Part shown: positions 1,749 through 62,254 of the stretch, piece by piece
Layout of the letters: each line of letters begins with the position of its first letter
Numbering within the stretch: position 1 is the stretch's first letter
Origin: a virus
Taxonomy: Duplodnaviria; Caudoviricetes
IMG/VR virus record: IMGVR_UViG_3300014969_000019
Location: 3,145 to 67,144 of that record
Strand: one strand, 5' to 3'
Length of the DNA: 64,000 bases
Program-made: the position numbers and the translations under genes
Notes under the pieces: generated by a model
Databases searched by the model: none
What the model saw: only the letters and a program-made list of their open reading frames with translations
Told to the model about the DNA's origin: nothing

Positions 1749-4748
1749 ATGGTGTATGACCAGGCACAGAGTCCACGCCTGGGTCAGCGCGTTCCGATCG
1801 AGTCGACCTATGTCCAGATGGTCGACGACGAGAACCTGCTGGAGGCCGCCTACCCGGGCATGCTGATCTTCCAGAACTCGACTCAGCAGCTGCTGATCTG
1901 GAGCGAGGAGGACCAGGCCTGGGCCTCGGTGGCGGGTGGAGTGGCCGGGCATCTGGTCTTCGTCGGCCCGGATGAGCCCACCGGTCCCAACGTCTCGCTC
2001 GGGGACACCTGGTTCGAGACCGACAACAACTACCTGGGACACGTCTGGAACGGCAGCACCTGGCAGCCCACCGGAGTCTCGGCCAGCCAGGTCACCGGTG
2101 GCACCTTCACCCAGGACATCAACCTGCAGGCCAAGCTGGTCTCCCGGATCGGTCCGAATGGCGAGCGGGTGGAGATGGACCGGGACGGGCTGCGGGTCTA
2201 CGGCCCGCTGGGTACCGATGGAGAGCTGCGCACCAACCTGGACGCGGACGGCTCCCAGGTCTTCCGTGGTGGGGCGGAGATCGACTATCTGACCACCACC
2301 GAGCGGCTGACCATGCGGGAGGCTGACAACCAGGTCTCACGGGGTGGAGCGCTCACCCTGAACGCTGGAGTGACCGCTCCTGGTACTGCGCCCAGCCCCA
2401 GCATCGGCTGGGCCTCAGCGGCGTTGACCGGGTTCAACCTGTTCGGACTGAGGACCCTGGACCTGGCCTGGGACTCCTCGCTGTCGAGGTGGCTAGTGCC
2501 GGTCTCGGGAGGCGGGGTCGCGAAGATGCTGGCCTACACCGCGGCCGGGGCCTACGACACCACCATCGGTACCGACGTGGCCTACTCCACGTCTGGTGGC
2601 GCTGTGGCCGGCGCTCGTGCGGGTGGGGTGAACTACTACCTCTGGGACGACGGCATTGATCTCATCCTGGTCGGTAACGACGGCTCGTCGATCGAGTACT
2701 TGCCGATCAGCACCAGCGCGACGTTCTCGATGGTCGCTGACGGCACCGACATCGTGATCGCCGAGCGCCTGATGAGTGGGACGGATGCCTGGGTCGAGCT
2801 GACTCGGTACACGCCTGGTTCAGCAGCCGGCCCACAGCTGGTCACCAACCCGGGCTTCGAGACCAACCTGACCGACTGGACCTCGGGTGCCGGGGTCTCC
2901 GGCATCTCCCGGATCACCGGTGCGAACAAGATCAACGGCACCGGCTCGATGCAGGTGGTGATGGGTGGGGTCGCGCTCGGGTTCGTCGCGACCACCCAGT
3001 TCGTGGTGATCCCGCGCAGGAGGTACGACTTCTCCGGGCTGATCAAGCGGATCTCGGGGCCAGGCACGGCCTCGGTCGAGCTGGAGATCCTCTGGTTCAA
3101 CGCGGTCGGTACCACCATCAGCGGCACGACCGGGGTCACTCACACCGTCTCCTCGGGTGTGACTACTTTCGCCGGCACGGCGATGGCACCTCCGACTGCG
3201 GCCAAGGCTCGGGTCGAGATCGTCTTCCCGAACAACGCCGGCACCTACGTGGTCGACGACATCTCGTTCACCGCGACAGCTGGGACGAACTACACCAGCA
3301 CCGACGACATGCAGATCTTCTCCTCACCGACCGCGCCCGCGGATGGGATCTACATCGGGAACGGGGACTTCGGGTCCAAGCACTACGTGATCTCCACTGG
3401 CACCCCGGATGGGAACGTGGCTGCGGTGGCTCCGGTCACCTCCCCGTTCGAGGACAAGGTGAACAAGAGCTTCCCGCTCCCGCAGGTGCCCAGGGGGATC
3501 GGCTACGACGGGACCAGCTTCTGGTCACTGGGGATCAACGACGTGCTGTACAAGCACGAGAGCGGGAACAACTGGACCAGCCAGCCGGCCACCTGGTACG
3601 CGGCCAGCACCTACCGGGACACGGTGAACGGCTACCACACCACGATCTCGCCCTACTCCACGTTCACCATGAAGCGCCGGGCCCGGGTGACCATCTCGGC
3701 CAGCCCGATCAACGGCACCGGCTCTGACGACCCGAACGAGATCGGCTACTACCTCGCGCGCAAGACCTCTGCTCCGACCCTGACCGACTGGCACTTCCAG
3801 GACGACACACCGGCCTCCTCGCTGCTGATCACCGCTGCCAACTTCGGATCATCCAACCCCGATGCCACCGGCAACTTCCCGAGCGCGACGAACTCCGCGG
3901 AGATGAAGAGCGCAGCCGTCGATGGCTTCGGTGAGCTGATCCAGTTCTGGGGAGATGGGCACTGGCGGCTGGGCGACATGTCCGGGGACACCACCGGTGC
4001 GATCTCTGGGGCTGGTGGTGGCGGAGTGACTACCACTGCCGCGGTGCACCACCGACGGGCCACGGGTGGCACGCCCAACTTCACCTCTGGCGCGGCTGAC
4101 TCCACCTACGGGCTCGGCACCTCTCAGAACGATGTCGGCGGGATCGCCTTCAACACCACCACTCGGGAGTTCACCGTCCCCTCGGACGGCACCTACCTGC
4201 TGGCGTGTGAGTCGGCCTGGGATCCGACCGGTACCGGCAACCAGGGACGCCGTAGATCCTCGATCGCGGTGAACGGGACCATCGTCGCCTACCGGGACTC
4301 CCAGGTCGCTCAGCCCGGCTTCGGGGTCTCCTCAGGCACCGCTACCGCTCGGTCCCTGGTGACCGGGGACAAGGTGACCTTCCTGGTCTTCCAGAACTCC
4401 GGAGTGACCGCCAACTTCAACGGTGAGGTCGCGGGTAACTGGGTCTCGGTGACCAAGGTCGACGGGATCAAGGGCGACACTGGTCCGGCGGGGAGTCTGA
4501 CCGGGCCCGCGGGCGGGGACCTGAGCGGGACCTACCCGAACCCGACTCTGACCACGCTGACCTTCACCTTCGCGGTCGGCAGCACCACCTGGTCATGCAC
4601 GCACAACCTGGGCAAGGTGGGGGTCAAGGTCTTCTGCACCGACTCCTCGGGATCCGAGCAGCGCGGCGATGTGGTGCACGTCGACGCCGATCACGTCACC
4701 ATCCACTGGGTCAGTGCCACCACGGGCATCGCCTACATCACTCCCTAG
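1749..4748 (+). CDS. Large minor tail / receptor-binding protein with carbohydrate-binding-like module
   Basis: 999 aa, Gly/Thr/Ser-rich. LVTNPGFETNLTDW resembles the start of a CBM-like domain; short collagen stretch near the C-terminus. Confidence 0.65.
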   Translation: MVYDQAQSPRLGQRVPIESTYVQMVDDENLLEAAYPGMLIFQNSTQQLLIWSEEDQAWASVAGGVAGHLVFVGPDEPTGPNVSLGDTWFETDNNYLGHVWNGSTWQPTGVSASQVTGGTFTQDINLQAKLVSRIGPNGERVEMDRDGLRVYGPLGTDGELRTNLDADGSQVFRGGAEIDYLTTTERLTMREADNQVSRGGALTLNAGVTAPGTAPSPSIGWASAALTGFNLFGLRTLDLAWDSSLSRWLVPVSGGGVAKMLAYTAAGAYDTTIGTDVAYSTSGGAVAGARAGGVNYYLWDDGIDLILVGNDGSSIEYLPISTSATFSMVADGTDIVIAERLMSGTDAWVELTRYTPGSAAGPQLVTNPGFETNLTDWTSGAGVSGISRITGANKINGTGSMQVVMGGVALGFVATTQFVVIPRRRYDFSGLIKRISGPGTASVELEILWFNAVGTTISGTTGVTHTVSSGVTTFAGTAMAPPTAAKARVEIVFPNNAGTYVVDDISFTATAGTNYTSTDDMQIFSSPTAPADGIYIGNGDFGSKHYVISTGTPDGNVAAVAPVTSPFEDKVNKSFPLPQVPRGIGYDGTSFWSLGINDVLYKHESGNNWTSQPATWYAASTYRDTVNGYHTTISPYSTFTMKRRARVTISASPINGTGSDDPNEIGYYLARKTSAPTLTDWHFQDDTPASSLLITAANFGSSNPDATGNFPSATNSAEMKSAAVDGFGELIQFWGDGHWRLGDMSGDTTGAISGAGGGGVTTTAAVHHRRATGGTPNFTSGAADSTYGLGTSQNDVGGIAFNTTTREFTVPSDGTYLLACESAWDPTGTGNQGRRRSSIAVNGTIVAYRDSQVAQPGFGVSSGTATARSLVTGDKVTFLVFQNSGVTANFNGEVAGNWVSVTKVDGIKGDTGPAGSLTGPAGGDLSGTYPNPTLTTLTFTFAVGSTTWSCTHNLGKVGVKVFCTDSSGSEQRGDVVHVDADHVTIHWVSATTGIAYITP

Positions 4749-6080: not shown

Positions 6081-6733
6081 TGCCCTCCAAGCTGGGCTCG
6101 ATCCTGGACATGGCCAACATGGTCATCAAGAACCTCGGCGCGCCCGTAGCTGCTACCGACGCCTCCACCAAGAAGTACGTGGACGACCAGGTAGCGCTCG
6201 CGTCCGGGGGCGCAGTGGTGCCGCCTGGAGTGATTCAGATGTACGGCGGGTCCACAGCCCCGACAGGGTGGGTGCTGTGCCAGGGGCAGTCCGTCCCTCG
6301 GACCGGAGGCACCTACGACGCGCTGTTCGCGGTGATCGGCACGAACTTCGGGATGGGCGCGAACTCCCCAACCAACGGCACCTTCAACCTGCCGGACATG
6401 CGCACGCGCGTACCGATCGGAGTGGGGGCCTGGGGCTCGTTGGGTACCACCGAGCTCGGAGCTCAGGCTGCGGTGGTCAACGCGGGTGGCGCGGAGGACA
6501 GTGGCCGAGTAGAGCGCTGGAGCCACATCCACGACCACACCTTCGGCACCCTGACCAACGCCTCCACCGACCTGAACCTGGCCACGAACACCACCACCGG
6601 CGGCACCGCGTCCCGCATCATGCAGCAGAACCACACCCACACCATCTCCGGTCGGACGCAGAGCACCACGGCTCTGGCCAACCCCGGCTCGGTGCATGCG
6701 ACCACGGCCATGAACTTCATCATCAAGCTCTAG
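6080..6733 (+). CDS. Tail collar domain protein
   Basis: VPPGVIQMYGGSTAPTGWVLCQGQ...YDALFAVIGTNFG...TFNLPDMRTRVPIG matches the phage tail collar signature. Confidence 0.9.
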   Translation: MPSKLGSILDMANMVIKNLGAPVAATDASTKKYVDDQVALASGGAVVPPGVIQMYGGSTAPTGWVLCQGQSVPRTGGTYDALFAVIGTNFGMGANSPTNGTFNLPDMRTRVPIGVGAWGSLGTTELGAQAAVVNAGGAEDSGRVERWSHIHDHTFGTLTNASTDLNLATNTTTGGTASRIMQQNHTHTISGRTQSTTALANPGSVHATTAMNFIIKL

Positions 6734-6775
6734 CGCGTGGCCGTTGATGAGACCATCTGAGTAGAGGAGGCAGAC

Positions 6776-7102
6776 ATGCCAGGAACGACTCCCGCCCAAG
6801 CCTTTCGGGTTCCGGTCGGCACCGATGACCCGGACGTAGTTGACGACATCACCCAGCTCGCCAAGCAGATCGAGAAGCGGGTGATGGGGGTCTACGCCAC
6901 CACGGCCGCGCGCGACGCTGCGACCACGGCAGCAGGTGTTCAGGAGGGGATGTTCGCCTTCACTCAGGACACCGACTCGGTCTGGTACTACTCGGGCTCG
7001 GCCTGGGTGAAGTTCCCACCCGCTCAGCCGGCGATCACCTCGGGGACCTCGGTGCCCTCGAACAGCTCCGGTGCTGACGGCGACGTCTTCTTCAAGGTCT
7101 AG
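6776..7102 (+). CDS. Minor tail protein
   Basis: YATTAARDAA...EGMFAF...YYSGSAW pattern typical of actinophage minor tail proteins; strong RBS gaggagg. Confidence 0.65.
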   Translation: MPGTTPAQAFRVPVGTDDPDVVDDITQLAKQIEKRVMGVYATTAARDAATTAAGVQEGMFAFTQDTDSVWYYSGSAWVKFPPAQPAITSGTSVPSNSSGADGDVFFKV

Positions 7103-37199: not shown

Positions 37200-39454
37200 T
37201 GGCTGCATCGCTGACCGCGTACCCCTCCGAGCAGGAGCCGATGGGGTTCTTCCGGGTCTTCGCCACCCCTCCGGGGAAGTACCAGCAGGAGATCACCCTG
37301 TTCCGGGGTGTGCCGACCAAGATCGGCACGGTCTCCACCCAGGACCCGTTCACCGAGGTGACCGCTCAGCTGTCCTTCCCACAGATCACGGTCTTCGACT
37401 CCCCGGGCGAGGGCGACCTGGACTGGCTGGTCCCGAACTGCGACATCGACATCGTCTGGCAGAACGTGGGCGACTACGACTTCAACTGGCGCTGGGAGGG
37501 GTACATCGCGGCGTACAGCTTCTCCCTGACCGGCCAGGACTCCTCATTCAGCATGGACCTGAAGGGAGCCTTCTACGGTCTGGACGACTACCTGGCGATC
37601 CCGTCCTTCCCGAAGCAGCCGGTCCCCTACGAGATCCTGCTGGCTCAGGCCTTCGACCAGGACGAGCACCCCTCGCACCTGGGGAAGTTCCGGATCCTGT
37701 TCCCCGAGGACTGGGACCTGACGGTGCCTCCGTTCGACGACCCGAAGTACCTGGTGGCGTTGAAGCCCTGGGGAGTGGCCACCGGACAGCGCTGGACCGG
37801 GTTCACCTCGCGGAGCACGGGGAGCTGGGAGCCGCTGCTGACCGGTCACGTCCAGTCCCTGATCACCGTGATGTTCGCCGAGGGTGGGAGCCAGTGGAGC
37901 ATCCGGAACCGAGGCCAGCGCCGGCCCGAGCTGTTCCTACGTCGGATCCCCGACAGTGCTGATGACTCGATCATCGAGATCACCCTGGGTGCTCCCGGTG
38001 TCCAGATGGACGGGTCTCGGGACTACACCCAGCGAGCCGGGGTGATCTACGGAGCGGGGCAGGACGAGGCCGGGATCGCGTTCTCCAACGTCCAGGTGAC
38101 CCCGGACGGGAAGACCACCTACTTCAAGCCCTTCGCCTACAACTCCCGGATGTACCCGAGGAAGAACAACCCCAGCTACGACCCGCGGGTGAAGCCCAAG
38201 GAGACCCTGCTGAGGTTCCAGGACGGGGTCGACGAGCTCAGCGCGCTGAAGATCGCCCAGGGTCAGTACCAGCGGTTCGCCGAGCCCGGGATCACCGGCA
38301 CGATCACCCTGACCACCGACCCCCGGCTGTCCTCGGGTCAGCTGATGCCCCGGCTGATGATCCGGGGTGGGCAGACCATCCGGATCAACGGGCTGCTCGG
38401 GGTCAAGGAGGGTGTGCTGGCCCACATCACCCAGGTGAGCGCGGACTTCGACACGCTGACCGTGCAGCTGACCTACGACACCAAGTACCGCGACCAGCTG
38501 ACGGTGGAGGAGGTGAAGGCCAGGACCCGAGACGCGCTGACCCCACTGCGAGCACTCCAGGTGGGGAAGTACTCCAACACGATCCAGGACCTGGTGCTGC
38601 CCTGGTCCTACAAGGCGGGGTCTGGGATCGTCCCGACCGGAGCGAAGGAGTTCTTCACCGAGAAGCTGCCCGGGAACGCGACCTTCCCGTTCGAGGAGTG
38701 GACTCGGAAGTGGCCACCGTCGAACCCCAAGTCCAAGCCGTACTACATCGAGATCGGCAAGACCGACACGGCCAACTCCCTGAACAACTGGAGCTCGATG
38801 AAGCGCGATGGGATCGCTCTGGCCGCGGTCCCGATCCGGATGAGCCAGGCCGGGAGCATCCGGTTGACCCAGATCGCGGCGTACGACAAGGACGGCAACG
38901 TGCTGCCGGTGAAGTTCCACGTCAGCCTGTACGACAACTCGGGTGTGGATGCGAAGGCGATGCCTCGGTTCCCGGTGATCCGGTCCGACCCGCAGTTCCC
39001 GAACTACCTGCCGGCGCGCAAGGTGAACGGCACGGTGATCCCGACCACCTACCAGACCGACCTGACCCCGGCGATGACCCATCCCTTCTACAAGGGTGGC
39101 TGGGAGCACATCCAGCCGGACGGCACGAACTTCCCGTGGGGCGGAGACGCGCAGCTGCCTGCGCAGGGGGCCGAGGTGAAGGTCGGGTGGGGCACCTACT
39201 ACGAGCCCGCCGGGTACTCCCCGGGCCGGGCCTCCAAGGGTGCTGCTCGGACCGGTCTGCTGAACGACGACACCGTCTGGGGCTGGGACCTGAGCTCGCT
39301 GCTGAACCTGGACAAGCCCAAGAACCCCAAGCTCGGGAACCAGAACGACGAGTACGCGGGCATGCTCTTCATCATGATCTACTGCGACGATCAGGATGAT
39401 CAGTCTGTGTACTTCATGGGCCGCTTCATCAGGCAGGAGCCTGGTCAGACATGA
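37199..39454 (+). CDS. Minor tail / tail tip hub protein
   Basis: 751 aa, GTG start, WEGYI motif, in tail tip cluster. Confidence 0.65.
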   Translation: MAASLTAYPSEQEPMGFFRVFATPPGKYQQEITLFRGVPTKIGTVSTQDPFTEVTAQLSFPQITVFDSPGEGDLDWLVPNCDIDIVWQNVGDYDFNWRWEGYIAAYSFSLTGQDSSFSMDLKGAFYGLDDYLAIPSFPKQPVPYEILLAQAFDQDEHPSHLGKFRILFPEDWDLTVPPFDDPKYLVALKPWGVATGQRWTGFTSRSTGSWEPLLTGHVQSLITVMFAEGGSQWSIRNRGQRRPELFLRRIPDSADDSIIEITLGAPGVQMDGSRDYTQRAGVIYGAGQDEAGIAFSNVQVTPDGKTTYFKPFAYNSRMYPRKNNPSYDPRVKPKETLLRFQDGVDELSALKIAQGQYQRFAEPGITGTITLTTDPRLSSGQLMPRLMIRGGQTIRINGLLGVKEGVLAHITQVSADFDTLTVQLTYDTKYRDQLTVEEVKARTRDALTPLRALQVGKYSNTIQDLVLPWSYKAGSGIVPTGAKEFFTEKLPGNATFPFEEWTRKWPPSNPKSKPYYIEIGKTDTANSLNNWSSMKRDGIALAAVPIRMSQAGSIRLTQIAAYDKDGNVLPVKFHVSLYDNSGVDAKAMPRFPVIRSDPQFPNYLPARKVNGTVIPTTYQTDLTPAMTHPFYKGGWEHIQPDGTNFPWGGDAQLPAQGAEVKVGWGTYYEPAGYSPGRASKGAARTGLLNDDTVWGWDLSSLLNLDKPKNPKLGNQNDEYAGMLFIMIYCDDQDDQSVYFMGRFIRQEPGQT

Positions 39455-39816
39455 GCGATGGCAGCATCACCGACGAGCAGGCCCACCTGTGGCTGCAGGA
39501 CATCGCGAACGCGGGGTTCATCTCCCTGCACTACGACAGCCCGGCTCTGGGTGGTGCGGACCGAGCGGAGATCGCGGGGAGTGGCTACCAGCGGGTGAAG
39601 ATGGCCTTCTCCCAGCCCAACAACAGGGCGATCTGGTCTCTGGCCGACGCCAGGTTCACCGGCCTGCAGCAGACCAAGCTGGTCTACTTCGGGATCTGGG
39701 ACCAGCTGAACTTGGGGATGCTCCGCTCCTACGGTGAGCTGCCGACGCCGGCGGTGGTGCTGAACGGGAAGGGCTACGTTCTGCACGCCGGTCTGATCGT
39801 GGTCTCCTTCGGGTAA
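39451..39816 (+). CDS. Minor tail protein
   Basis: ISLHYDSP...AEIAGSGYQRV...YFGIWD...G.ML pattern; last rightward structural gene. Confidence 0.7.
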   Translation: MSDGSITDEQAHLWLQDIANAGFISLHYDSPALGGADRAEIAGSGYQRVKMAFSQPNNRAIWSLADARFTGLQQTKLVYFGIWDQLNLGMLRSYGELPTPAVVLNGKGYVLHAGLIVVSFG

Positions 39817-39827
39817 AAGGTCCAGAA

Positions 39828-39890
39828 ATGCAAAAAGGGCCGTAGGGGCCCCACCCCCACCCGTAGGTGGAGATGGGGCCCGCATGGCCA
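39828..39890 (-). terminator. Intrinsic terminator of the leftward arm
   Basis: GC stem gggcccca...tggggccc, followed on the minus strand by TTTTTGCAT. Confidence 0.65.
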
Positions 39891-40006
39891 TGGGACTCGT
39901 CGTGCGTCGACTATCCCTTTTCCCCGCAACGCCCGACTTGGACGCACTCCGCCAGCGCTTGTTGGGGTGGTTCTTGCTGCCGGAACTTCTTGGGTAGGTC
40001 TGTGAA

Positions 40007-40488
40007 CAGACCCGGCTCCCGTCACATCCGTGTACCGGGAGCCGGGTCTGGTTGATCTCCTCTCGGCACGAGAGGACTCCCCGCAGAAGGGAAGATGTGG
40101 AAAGACCCCCGTCCCTAGCACCCGGCAGCGCTGAGGGACGGGGGCCCACCTGGAACTCCTTCTCCACCACTTGGGAGATTCGGGAGAAGGAGCTTGGAAC
40201 CTCGTCCACACCGGGGAGGTTGATGGAGCGAGGTTCCTACCCGAGTGACCCCTGCCTCAACTGAAGGAGAGCGAGACAGGGGTTACCCGATTCGGTCTGC
40301 CCCTCACCGGGGAGGGAGATGCAGACCATCCCGAGTGGCCCTCCGCTCCGGCTAGGGACCGGAGTGGGGCCTTCTCGGACCTCCTTCTGTGGAGAAGATC
40401 CAAGCCTTGAAGGGAACCCCCGTCTCCATGGGACGCCTCCTGTAGGAGACGGGGGTCCTCCCTTGAACCCACCGTCAGAACGGTGGGT
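40007..40488. ncRNA. Candidate structured ncRNA: array of 11 tandem hairpins
   Basis: Stems of 6-15 bp packed back-to-back in a region without a credible ORF; see findings. Confidence 0.55.
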
Positions 40489-40489
40489 C

Positions 40490-40858
40490 TCAGACACCCG
40501 GCTGCTTCCCCTGGTCAGCTAGGTGCCGAGCTACATCCTCCGCGCGATGGGTCTCGCAGAGAGTCTTCAGCCAGTGGTATGTGGCCTTGGTCTCGCCAGG
40601 CTCACCACAGACCTCACAGACGTGGAGCGACTTCTCCTCGGCCACGCCGATCGCGTGGTGGAAGGCGGTACCGAAGTCGGTCCGGGTCTGGGCGTAGTAC
40701 CGCAGCCCACCGAACTTCTCCTTGACCTGCTGGAGCTCGAAGTCCGGGTCGAGCTTGTTCAGCTCAGTCTCCAGGTCGCGGACCAGAGGATGCCAGCCCT
40801 CGCCGATGTTGTTGGCGGAGGTCATCACGTTGCGTGGTTCGTCGAAGATGCTGGTCAT
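40490..40858 (-). CDS. Conserved phage hypothetical protein (QVKEKFGGLRYY family)
   Basis: GWHPLVRDL...QVKEKFGGLRYY...CEVCGEPG...WLKTLC; RBS ggag. Confidence 0.8.
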   Translation of the reverse strand: MTSIFDEPRNVMTSANNIGEGWHPLVRDLETELNKLDPDFELQQVKEKFGGLRYYAQTRTDFGTAFHHAIGVAEEKSLHVCEVCGEPGETKATYHWLKTLCETHRAEDVARHLADQGKQPGV

Positions 40859-40859
40859 G

Positions 40860-41210
40860 TCACTCCTGTTCTGGGCGGTCGAGCTGTCGCTGGACCGCAT
40901 CGGAGTAGAGAGCGAAGTGTTCTGCTAGCACCCAGCCCACCAACGGCCCACCCCAGTAGTGGGCGTCGTCGTAGGGCAGGAGGCGAGTCTGGCCATCGGT
41001 GTTCACCGTCAGGCACAGATCGTCGTTGACGTAGAGCCCGCAGTGTCCCCAGGGCTCGGCGGCGTAGAAGCACACCGATCCGAACGCCGGCTTCGCGTCC
41101 GTGATCAGTGGCAGCGCTCGTGCTGCCTGCTTCGCGGTGCCCCACTTGGCCGGGCACCGGAGGAGCCGGCGAACGAAGGCCAGGCTCCGACCGGAGTAGT
41201 CCTCGCTCAC
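40860..41210 (-). CDS. NlpC/P60-CHAP-like protein with Ser at the catalytic Cys position
   Basis: GRSLAFVR...PAFGSVCFY...WGHCGLY...WGGPLVGW aligns by eye with the endolysin; GTG start overlaps the upstream stop. Confidence 0.6.
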   Translation of the reverse strand: MSEDYSGRSLAFVRRLLRCPAKWGTAKQAARALPLITDAKPAFGSVCFYAAEPWGHCGLYVNDDLCLTVNTDGQTRLLPYDDAHYWGGPLVGWVLAEHFALYSDAVQRQLDRPEQE

Positions 41211-47028: not shown

Positions 47029-47064
47029 ATGCAAAAACCCCCACGGCTATCTGAGCCGTGAGGG
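47029..47064 (-). terminator. Hairpin + TTTTTGCAT element
   Basis: cacggct/agccgtg stem followed on the minus strand by a U-run. Confidence 0.6.
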
Positions 47065-47102
47065 CTGGGTACCTGGGGACGGGTGTCCCTGGGTACGTGT
47101 CT

Positions 47103-47131
47103 ATTGTATCACAAACACTACATCCCGTCTA
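47103..47131 (-). promoter_or_regulatory. SigA-type leftward promoter
   Basis: Minus strand TAGACG-17nt-TACAAT with extended -10 TGn. Confidence 0.7.
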
Positions 47132-54735: not shown

Positions 54736-54966
54736 GTATCACCTCTATGTGATGTCGGCCGGTGGGGCTCACCCCTCGTGGAGCCCCACCGGCGGTCTTG
54801 CGGACACATCTCCTCTCACCCCATGCACAGAGGAGATGAAGAGGGGCACCTGCACCCCCGTGTTACTCAGGTGCCCCTCAGATCGGGAGAGGTCAGCTAG
54901 GCTGCCCTCGTTCCTTTCATGGTTGAACAGGGGCCCCCGGAAATGCCGACATCCGGGGGCCCTTGC

Positions 54967-61586: not shown

Positions 61587-62041
61587 GACTTCCCCTTCTC
61601 CACTTGGTCATCCCAGGCCTTGCGGAAGGTGATGTTCTCTTCCTTGGTATTCGGTGTTGGTGGCTCCGGTTCGTAGGTCACTGAGGTAGTGAACCGGAGG
61701 CCGGACTCAGTCACGATGGTGAAGGTCTGGATCTGCCCATCGTCATCGAAGTTGTCCTCGATGTGGTCGACCTTGATCGGGAACAGCTCGGTCTGAGCTG
61801 CTCCTCTGAAACAGCCCAGGATCAACCATCCGAGAGCTGCATCTGGGATCGGATTGTCGTCGTGTTCGATGTCCGTCGTTCTCATCCCTTTCTGGTGTGG
61901 TTCGGGCATGAAAAAGACCCGGTGTCGGAGGATGGGTATGTTCACCTTCTCCTCCGACACCGGGTCGGTTCTCCTCCCTGGCATGGGGTCCAGGTCAGAG
62001 GGTGAATCATCCGCGCATGGCGAATGAATCACTGTGTTCAT
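61583..62041 (-). CDS. Hypothetical protein (true start probably downstream, e.g. 61984)
   Basis: The longest ATG overlaps the predicted -10 box. Confidence 0.55.
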   Translation of the reverse strand: MNTVIHSPCADDSPSDLDPMPGRRTDPVSEEKVNIPILRHRVFFMPEPHQKGMRTTDIEHDDNPIPDAALGWLILGCFRGAAQTELFPIKVDHIEDNFDDDGQIQTFTIVTESGLRFTTSVTYEPEPPTPNTKEENITFRKAWDDQVEKGKS

Positions 62042-62069
62042 TGTATCATAAGCACTACATACAGCACAA
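62040..62069 (-). promoter_or_regulatory. SigA-type leftward promoter
   Basis: TTGTGC-18nt-TACAAT with TGn; shares ATGTAGTG-T-(T/A)TGATACAAT with the 47.1 kb promoter. Confidence 0.65.
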
Positions 62070-62224
62070 GGGCCAGACCCTGATGGGCCTGGCCTGTTCT
62101 GGAGTGTCGGTGCCCCTCATCGAGGGGTCTTAACCGAGTGACTCCGATGGAACCTTCACCCCTAGCCGCTTCGGTTCCGTACCTAGAGCTAGGGAGGGTA
62201 GAGATCGGATGACCTCATGAGTCC

Positions 62225-62254
62225 ATTGTACTACATACACCACACCCATCGCAA
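62225..62254 (-). promoter_or_regulatory. SigA-type leftward promoter
   Basis: TTGCGA-18nt-TACAAT; the spacer again contains ATGTAG. Confidence 0.5.

Follow-up and report, generated by a model that had tools for sequence, protein, structure and literature searches.

The intergenic RNase III hairpins of phage T7 and the sib retroregulator of lambda are hairpins of untranslated RNA that set message stability via processing; unlike the array described here, they show a defined internal-loop architecture and occur as single sites. The REP/BIME clusters of enterobacteria are, like this array, runs of extragenic palindromic hairpins without a U-tract; they occupy 3' untranslated regions, in many cases where two genes converge. 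They terminate transcription partially and block 3' exonucleases, and their location varies among strains (bioRxiv 10.64898/2026.03.23.713779; PMC3479197). In E. coli, REP325 combines terminator and stabiliser activity and produces truncated transcripts in a ladder (bioRxiv 10.64898/2026.03.23.713779), and stem-loops without U-tracts shield 3' ends from PNPase and RNase II (PMC6061677). Hairpins proposed to define and protect RNA 3' ends are, as those of the array, stable, located downstream of the last gene and without U-runs; however, they are single and have a rut site behind them, whereas the array contains eleven hairpins ahead of a canonical intrinsic terminator. The Pleft RNA of the Cluster A mycobacteriophages L5, D29 and StarStuff is ~500 nt long and has no conserved ORF, as in the array, and it is highly structured, stable, present as several smaller species and of unknown function (PMC5712189). 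It differs in being a 5' leader directly behind an early promoter, while the array reads as a promoterless 3' trailer without sequence similarity to it.

The array lies in a window of 64 kb (the whole stretch of DNA analysed, 64,000 nucleotides) that belongs to a 67-kb IMG/VR virus record and has a G+C content of ~64%. The left arm is encoded on the plus strand and carries the structural genes (terminase, Mu-like portal, MuF, tape measure and a Gp80-like fibre), and the genes of the right arm lie on the minus strand and are mostly unknown, apart from an AAA ATPase. The terminase is only ~23-25% identical to that of any cultured phage, with nothing above ~25% among 50,697 cultured-phage records. 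Complete relatives are ~80 kb long and the lineage ranges from roughly 67 to 80 kb. The phage is a member of an uncultured soil/rhizosphere lineage, and it was found near-unchanged in metagenomes of soil, roots and rhizosphere; these come from several studies, with runs dated 2017-2025. The public runs listed with this sequence include no RNA run. Gene orientation and AT skew both switch at the site of the array, and the last genes of the two arms are as follows:

39451..39816, plus strand: Gp80-like tail-fibre protein of 121 amino acids, last gene of the left arm (PF23140, E 8.7e-9; phrog_240), convergent with the hairpin array
40490..40900, minus strand: p136, last gene of the right-arm operon (from the ORF list and its translation), with its stop at 40490

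The protein database gives p136 as 122 amino acids, in which case its start is at 40858. Its third-position G+C is ~0.9, its homologues are found in many very diverse phage contigs (G+C 34-67%), and it shows no match to a Pfam or PHROG family. Its tail carries CxxC...C..H. No relative of p136 with an identity between 74% and 100% is present in the protein database, and a metagenome scan with p136 gave no relative closer than 62% identity.

The original prediction placed eleven stems between 40007 and 40488, and all of them were found at those coordinates. The order on the minus strand is the p136 stop, H11, H10, H9 to H1, a further module named Hx and a terminator named T0:

40467..40488, minus strand: H11, a hairpin of 9 bp immediately past the p136 stop, at a position that is also a hairpin in relatives
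40410..40462, minus strand: H10, with a 12-bp core stem (40416-27/40445-56), conserved across five lineages, in which the stem shows compensatory changes and the loops are unrelated
40377..40401, minus strand: H9, an imperfect hairpin (-15.9 kcal/mol on minus vs -9.2 on plus)
40337..40371, minus strand: H8, a paralogue of H6
40294..40327, minus strand: H7, with a loop motif common to H5 and a different stem that still pairs
40242..40289, minus strand: H6, with a 17-position stem (-29.0 kcal/mol on minus vs -23.7 on plus)
40196..40237, minus strand: H5, with a 9-bp perfect stem, a paralogue of H7
40156..40192, minus strand: H4, with a 10-bp perfect stem and a 17-nt loop
40103..40147, minus strand: H3, a second copy of the H10 module (-39.5 kcal/mol on minus vs -29.0 on plus)
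40058..40076, minus strand: H2, an 8-bp hairpin with a 3-nt loop
40007..40050, minus strand: H1, the strongest hairpin of the lineage-specific block, with a perfect stem of 15 bp
39893..39985, minus strand: Hx, a structured non-coding module that adjoins T0 on its upstream side
39832..39892, minus strand: T0, the intrinsic terminator of the right-arm operon (hairpin 39837-39892, T-run 39832-39836, tail TTTTTGCAT)

As in REP/BIME elements, a hairpin cluster occupies the 3' untranslated, convergent gap, with eleven hairpins between stop codon and terminator. Shuffled fold z-scores, which had been suggested as a check, were -9.99 on the plus and -10.70 on the minus strand for 40000-40495, with fold energies of -284.2 and -299.3 kcal/mol, respectively, that no dinucleotide shuffle matched. 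The entire gap (39817-40492) folds at -363.8 kcal/mol on plus (z -10.1) and -393.1 kcal/mol on minus (z -11.3), with equal shuffle means. A sliding-window fold scan shows the array region as a sustained outlier. Furthermore, six of the 29 perfect hairpins of the window with stems of at least 9 bp are located within these 480 nt, which are 0.75% of its length, while a Markov model expects 8-19 such hairpins per whole 64 kb. The claim that the junction of the convergent arms holds more structure than termination needs was therefore borne out, with fold z-scores of about -10 on both strands.

The reported lack of a credible ORF also held. Codon-phase G+C is flat across 39810-40530, while the flanking genes reach ~0.9 at third positions, and the array region is non-coding because of this flat profile. 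A hidden ORF was rejected given that the gap has no codon periodicity, and a 25-codon frame after the AGGAGG of the H10 loop is missing in relatives. Contigs from four further metagenome studies carry the array with at most four substitutions and one 3-nt deletion; it is nearly identical in four further runs and is therefore no assembly artefact. A loose end at 39971 in run X5 gives a glimpse of a possible diverged strain with the array. The eleven back-to-back hairpins are real and non-coding.

Searches for homologues and known families gave few matches. With blastn in distant mode, the 39700-40700 query had no match among 50,697 phage records, the L5/D29 right-end region included, and blastn and nhmmer searches of the array against all viral and metagenome loci collected gave matches limited to T0/Hx and H10/H11. 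H9 to H1 have no homologue in the phage, viral or metagenome sequences searched. Scans of IMG/VR with the loop, loop plus flank and D1 repeat motifs returned only chance or coding matches, and a genome-collection scan with the H3/H10 palindrome returned single chance palindromes across many phyla. In Rfam 15 (including GOLLD, ROOL, OLE and 6C/B11), a search proposed with the original prediction, the best matches were 14.8-24.4 bits against thresholds of 40-80, with E values of 0.3-8. ARAGORN finds 0 genes in the whole window, and a tRNA/tmRNA array was discarded.

REPs consist of one conserved unit of ~35-40 nt with hundreds of dispersed copies and are linked to RAYT, whereas this array is heterogeneous and confined to one phage gap. 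Neither further copies of the array nor REP-like dispersed copies were found in the 67-kb phage record or in five related viral records; both were also absent from 401 sampled Actinomycetota genomes, and the array from five pattern-hit genomes, a result of little weight as these genomes need not include the host. No RAYT gene was noted in the proteins scanned from the window. Unlike a MITE-like mobile hairpin-array repeat, the array was found at a single locus, without copies at unrelated sites in the sequences searched.

The original prediction leaned towards a plus-strand RNA and stated that G-U pairs favour this strand, a view that did not hold: T0 polarity, wobble counts, energy and natural variants all favour minus. 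Folds of the individual hairpins give 5 G-U pairs on plus and 23 on minus, and in whole-region folds the minus-strand G-U excess is ~2 sd over shuffles. The gap is more stable on minus by ~29 kcal/mol. In the H10 family (7 members) and in Hx-T0 (4 lineages), many G-U pairs would be A-C mismatches on the opposite strand. None of the four natural SNPs breaks a minus-strand pair and two of the four break plus-strand pairs: 40186 G>A in H4 changes a minus C-G to U-G and breaks the plus pair; 40284 T>C in H6 changes a minus A-C to G-C; 40398 A>G in H9 changes a minus U-G to C-G, so that the pair is kept or created; and 40228 falls at a mismatch. The minus-strand terminator reported just beyond the array (~39830) is real. 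Five lines of evidence, all read from sequence, agree and point to an array RNA on the minus strand.

A plus-strand RNA with GGAG/GGAGG displayed in its loops, sequestering ribosomes or an RNA-binding protein, would agree with the plus loops of H4-H7, which contain GGAG or GGGGAGG, and with the folding of the plus strand at z -10. However, GGAG is 3-fold enriched and CTCC likewise, with most copies of both within stems, so that the proposed display of GGAG in loops is not borne out. On plus, moreover, the array is downstream of T0 and past the end of the late operon, no promoter was found for it on that strand, and the wobble pairs of the conserved modules are valid on minus only. Together with the ~29 kcal/mol lower stability and the two SNPs that break plus pairs, this makes such a sponge very improbable. 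A role at the DNA level, with cruciforms or single-strand hairpins as replication origin or terminus, recombination site or packaging site, is likewise highly unlikely. Perfect Watson-Crick palindromic stems that fold on either strand, the location at the switch point of orientation and skew, and the conserved H10 and Hx flanks, which could be recombination anchors for slot swapping, would suit it; however, G-U asymmetry and wobble-only changes are RNA-level signatures, and the array is absent from relatives with the same genome plan. It shows no iterons and no A+T-rich stretch (G+C 0.64, genome-like), and a replication origin was rejected on these grounds.

Each of the 11 relatives compared has T0 just past the stop codon of its last left-arm gene. 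In the RNAalifold consensus of 11 sequences, two-sided changes affect 9 of the 11 pairs, and the T-run is common to all sequences. The terminators of this phage at T0, ~47040 and ~61920 show TTTTT followed by (G)CATG. A terminator scan of 40007-40488 on both strands found no hairpin with a T-run, and in the whole gap only T0 on minus and one weak plus match (39952-39965) within Hx were detected. The array hairpins share the G+C-rich stem of intrinsic terminators but have no 3' U-run, the tails of the H10 family being merely U/C-rich, and a stack of canonical terminators was ruled out as the array is without T-runs. The array hairpins are probably not precise terminators because they lack the terminator tail of this phage.

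Hx shows 72-84% identity among lineages that differ in the contents between H10 and Hx, while the neighbouring p136 is only 67-74% identical. Its counterparts are at 3491-3580 of L297, 4173-4260 of L294 and 3960-4045 of L303, and a motif scan gave the L055 contig as the only match. The RNAalifold consensus of Hx plus T0 (4 lineages) shows two-sided changes at 13 of 43 pairs and conserved U-G pairs that are valid on minus only. Compensatory changes support two helices in Hx. The module may have a role as a small RNA derived from the 3' end, or as an anchor for recombination that swaps the slot cargo.

A promoter-like motif of the extended -10 type, GTAGTGnnTnTGnTACAAT, is common to the window and its relatives on the early-arm strand. 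Its sites at minus 47123, 62060 and 62245 reach 29-39 bits, with the next best site at 16, and in relatives it is found at L302 2305, L303 3680, L006 5034 and L069 6842 (minus). A weaker site of the window is located at minus 63762. In the gap this motif is absent (best score -2.6 bits), and the nearest one upstream on minus is that at 47123. Three minus-strand stretches (61905-62060, 62075-62245 and 47035-47123) show the same order of promoter motif, ~60-170 nt of hairpins, terminator-like hairpin and first gene. The hairpins at 61916-61966 and ~47040-47075 have a T-run with the tail TTTTT(G)CATG, and the hairpin after 62245 is without a T-run. These promoter-proximal terminators recall lambda PR'-tR' and, by analogy, suggest antitermination control or small leader RNAs.

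We tentatively favour, at slightly less than even confidence, a reading in which the array is transcribed by read-through as a densely folded trailer at the 3' end of the right-arm message, its hairpins blocking exonucleases and insulating the convergent junction in a REP/BIME-like manner. Transcripts would start, probably, at the phage promoter near 47123 on the minus strand and would pass the p136 stop, H11 and H10, then H9 to H1 and Hx, to end at T0. If the transcript is read through to T0 in this way, the array is a structured 3' trailer of ~650 nt and not a separate gene. The hairpins would stop 3'-to-5' exonucleases, stabilising the upstream message and leaving a ladder of protected ends; they would also keep a long untranslated RNA folded, denying Rho loading, and may impede polymerases arriving from the convergent late operon. 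A pure barrier does not explain, however, why H5 and H7 conserve an 11-nt loop on differing stems, and the promoter-driven structured RNAs found at the same place in relatives hint at trans-acting roles.

Comparison with relatives shows that this place is a slot with variable contents. H11 and H10 follow the p136 stop in the window, L055/L297, L294, L301 and L303, and Hx precedes T0 in the window, L055/L297, L294 and L303. In L056 and L300, T0 comes directly after the p136 homologue, with gaps of 73 and 90 nt. The slot of L055/L297 contains an HNH endonuclease (PF01844, E 2.3e-9). This free-standing HNH homing endonuclease gene (L055 6807-7331, minus; L297 2966-3490) sits exactly at the place of H9-H1 in the closest relative. 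The neighbouring p136-type protein of L055, P0013, is found on 16 contigs, with the HNH gene alongside at all places shown. The slot of L294 has ~740 nt and is partly coding-like. Its 3460-3780 stretch, uncalled and inside a 971-nt 'intergenic' gap, shows strong periodicity by codon (phase G+C 0.38/0.96/0.52) and is probably a missed or frameshifted small gene. The slot of L303 contains a 234-aa gene followed by a promoter-driven structured RNA. As the contents between H10 and Hx are different in every lineage, the array is cargo of a hypervariable slot with conserved RNA-like modules on both sides, and it is dispensable for this phage type because the closest relatives have a bare terminator or an HNH gene. 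Compared with L055, the borders of the array are at ~39976 and ~40405, with no convincing terminal repeat by eye. A remnant of the L055 HNH gene was rejected, since a tblastn search of the gap was empty.

Structured sequence also occupies this slot in other relatives. The region 3680-3952 of L303 consists of a promoter and structured non-coding sequence (fold z -6.5) with its own terminator; L069 shows structured non-coding sequence at 6622-6832 on minus (fold z -7.8) with a promoter at 6842; and in L302 the promoter (2305) is followed by four back-to-back hairpins. These slot RNAs resemble the array in slot, in strand relative to p136 and in their dense hairpins (z -6.5 to -7.8), but they differ in having the phage promoter motif and, in L303, a terminator of their own, and they show no sequence similarity to H1-H9. 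An Rfam 15 search of relatives' slots that covered the structured RNA of L303 found nothing. The slot RNAs of L303 and L069, with 200-250 nt, start at the 5' end with a hairpin, followed by a long helix, AGGUCACCC...GGGUGA(C/U)C, and are a candidate new phage RNA family. In L006/L007, 5-6 hairpins (z -6.9) lie between the last ORF and a terminator with TTTTTGCATG, and the sense strand is favoured by 15 kcal/mol, which shows the same design in unrelated sequence. Several hairpins are also present in other right-arm gaps of this phage. Within the window, a 231-nt gap between co-directional right-arm genes (54736-54966) contains four strong hairpins (z ~-7) without a T-run. Their perfect stems have 10-13 bp and their loops 10-15 nt, as in a smaller version of the array.

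The internal paralogy reported in the original prediction was confirmed, with two copies each of CACCGGGGAGG, CCCGAGTG and ACCCCCGTC. The pairs H3 and H10, H5 and H7, and H6 and H8 align above shuffles (z 4-6), the unit H5-H6 resembles H7-H8, and H4 resembles H9. The H3 copy includes the flanks of H10, TTCCAGG before and TCTTTCCACAT after the hairpin. An 11-nt loop motif (CACCGGGGAGG on plus, CCTCCCCGGTG on minus) and an 8-nt flank are common to H5 and H7, whose stems differ yet still pair. These resemblances, at sequence level, show that the array grew partly through local duplication. In the RNAalifold consensus of the H10 family (7 members), 14 contiguous pairs are kept and 8 of the 18 pairs show two-sided changes, while the loops differ wholly in sequence and in length (7-23 nt). 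The two-sided stem changes and the divergent loops therefore indicate selection on pairing. In H5 and H7 the reverse is seen, with an 11-nt loop conserved on different stems. The alignment of the H11 position took in L294, L301, L303 and L297, and the natural 3-nt deletion at 40473 leaves H11 as a 7-bp hairpin.

The same data bear on whether the array has a function at all. Duplication-prone palindromic filler, or a decayed or selfish insert in a permissive slot, would fit the slot's variability (bare in L056/L300, HNH in L055/L297, coding-like in L294, two genes in L303), the lack of homologues of H9-H1 in the searches and the evident internal duplications. However, paralogous stems remain paired via two-sided changes while their loops are saturated, G-U pairs are biased to one strand and natural variants spare minus pairing. 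In addition, there are no further copies in the phage genome or its relatives, unlike a mobile repeat, and near-identical copies recur in runs from 2017 to 2025 and several studies. Stem conservation makes neutral filler less likely, and we regard a functionless array as unlikely. The locus shows that one conserved hairpin of the 3' end can be expanded into a long structured array, and the array is most likely an unusual form of a known RNA-end element, made by copying a conserved hairpin, and not a new RNA class.

Another explanation, which we consider possible but rather doubtful, is a functional non-coding RNA that is processed out of the operon transcript and acts in trans, by loop pairing or as a protein or nuclease decoy. 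In this case the minus-strand loops of H4-H7 with CUCC or CCUCC could pair with G-rich ribosome-binding sites; the C/U-rich loops are CCUCCCCGG in H5 and H7, CUCUCCUU in H6 and UCUCCC in H4. The loop motif and flank shared by H5 and H7 despite different stems, the promoter-driven structured RNAs in the equivalent slot of L303, L069 and L302, and the precedent of the abundant, processed and toxic ~500-nt non-coding RNA of Cluster A mycobacteriophages (PMC5712189) are consistent with it. The minus-strand loops hold 5 CUCC vs 1 GGAG, but this asymmetry is not significant and most GGAG/CTCC copies are in stems. Against a trans-acting RNA, the gap is without the phage promoter motif, only H10 and H11 are conserved outside the lineage, most loops are unconstrained between paralogues and no Rfam match was obtained. 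The sponge or decoy and nuclease-processed-array functions put forward in the original prediction are therefore a putative, minority reading. In its fullest form, with a multivalent regulatory or decoy RNA cut from the 3' end of the operon, loops that mimic the 16S rRNA end with the anti-Shine-Dalgarno sequence or titrate a host nuclease or defence protein, and an as yet undescribed habit of the soil phage group to keep non-coding RNA 'cargo' in the terminal slot of its early arm, it is an improbable account.

Were the array a true trans actor, it would be a new phage RNA effector. If, as in the favoured 3' trailer, it stabilises messages or insulates the arms, it would be a phage counterpart of REP/BIME regulation. 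The terminal slot of the early arm in this phage group swaps widely differing cargo: it may be empty, or carry a homing endonuclease, other proteins, or structured RNAs that are promoter-driven and not in Rfam.
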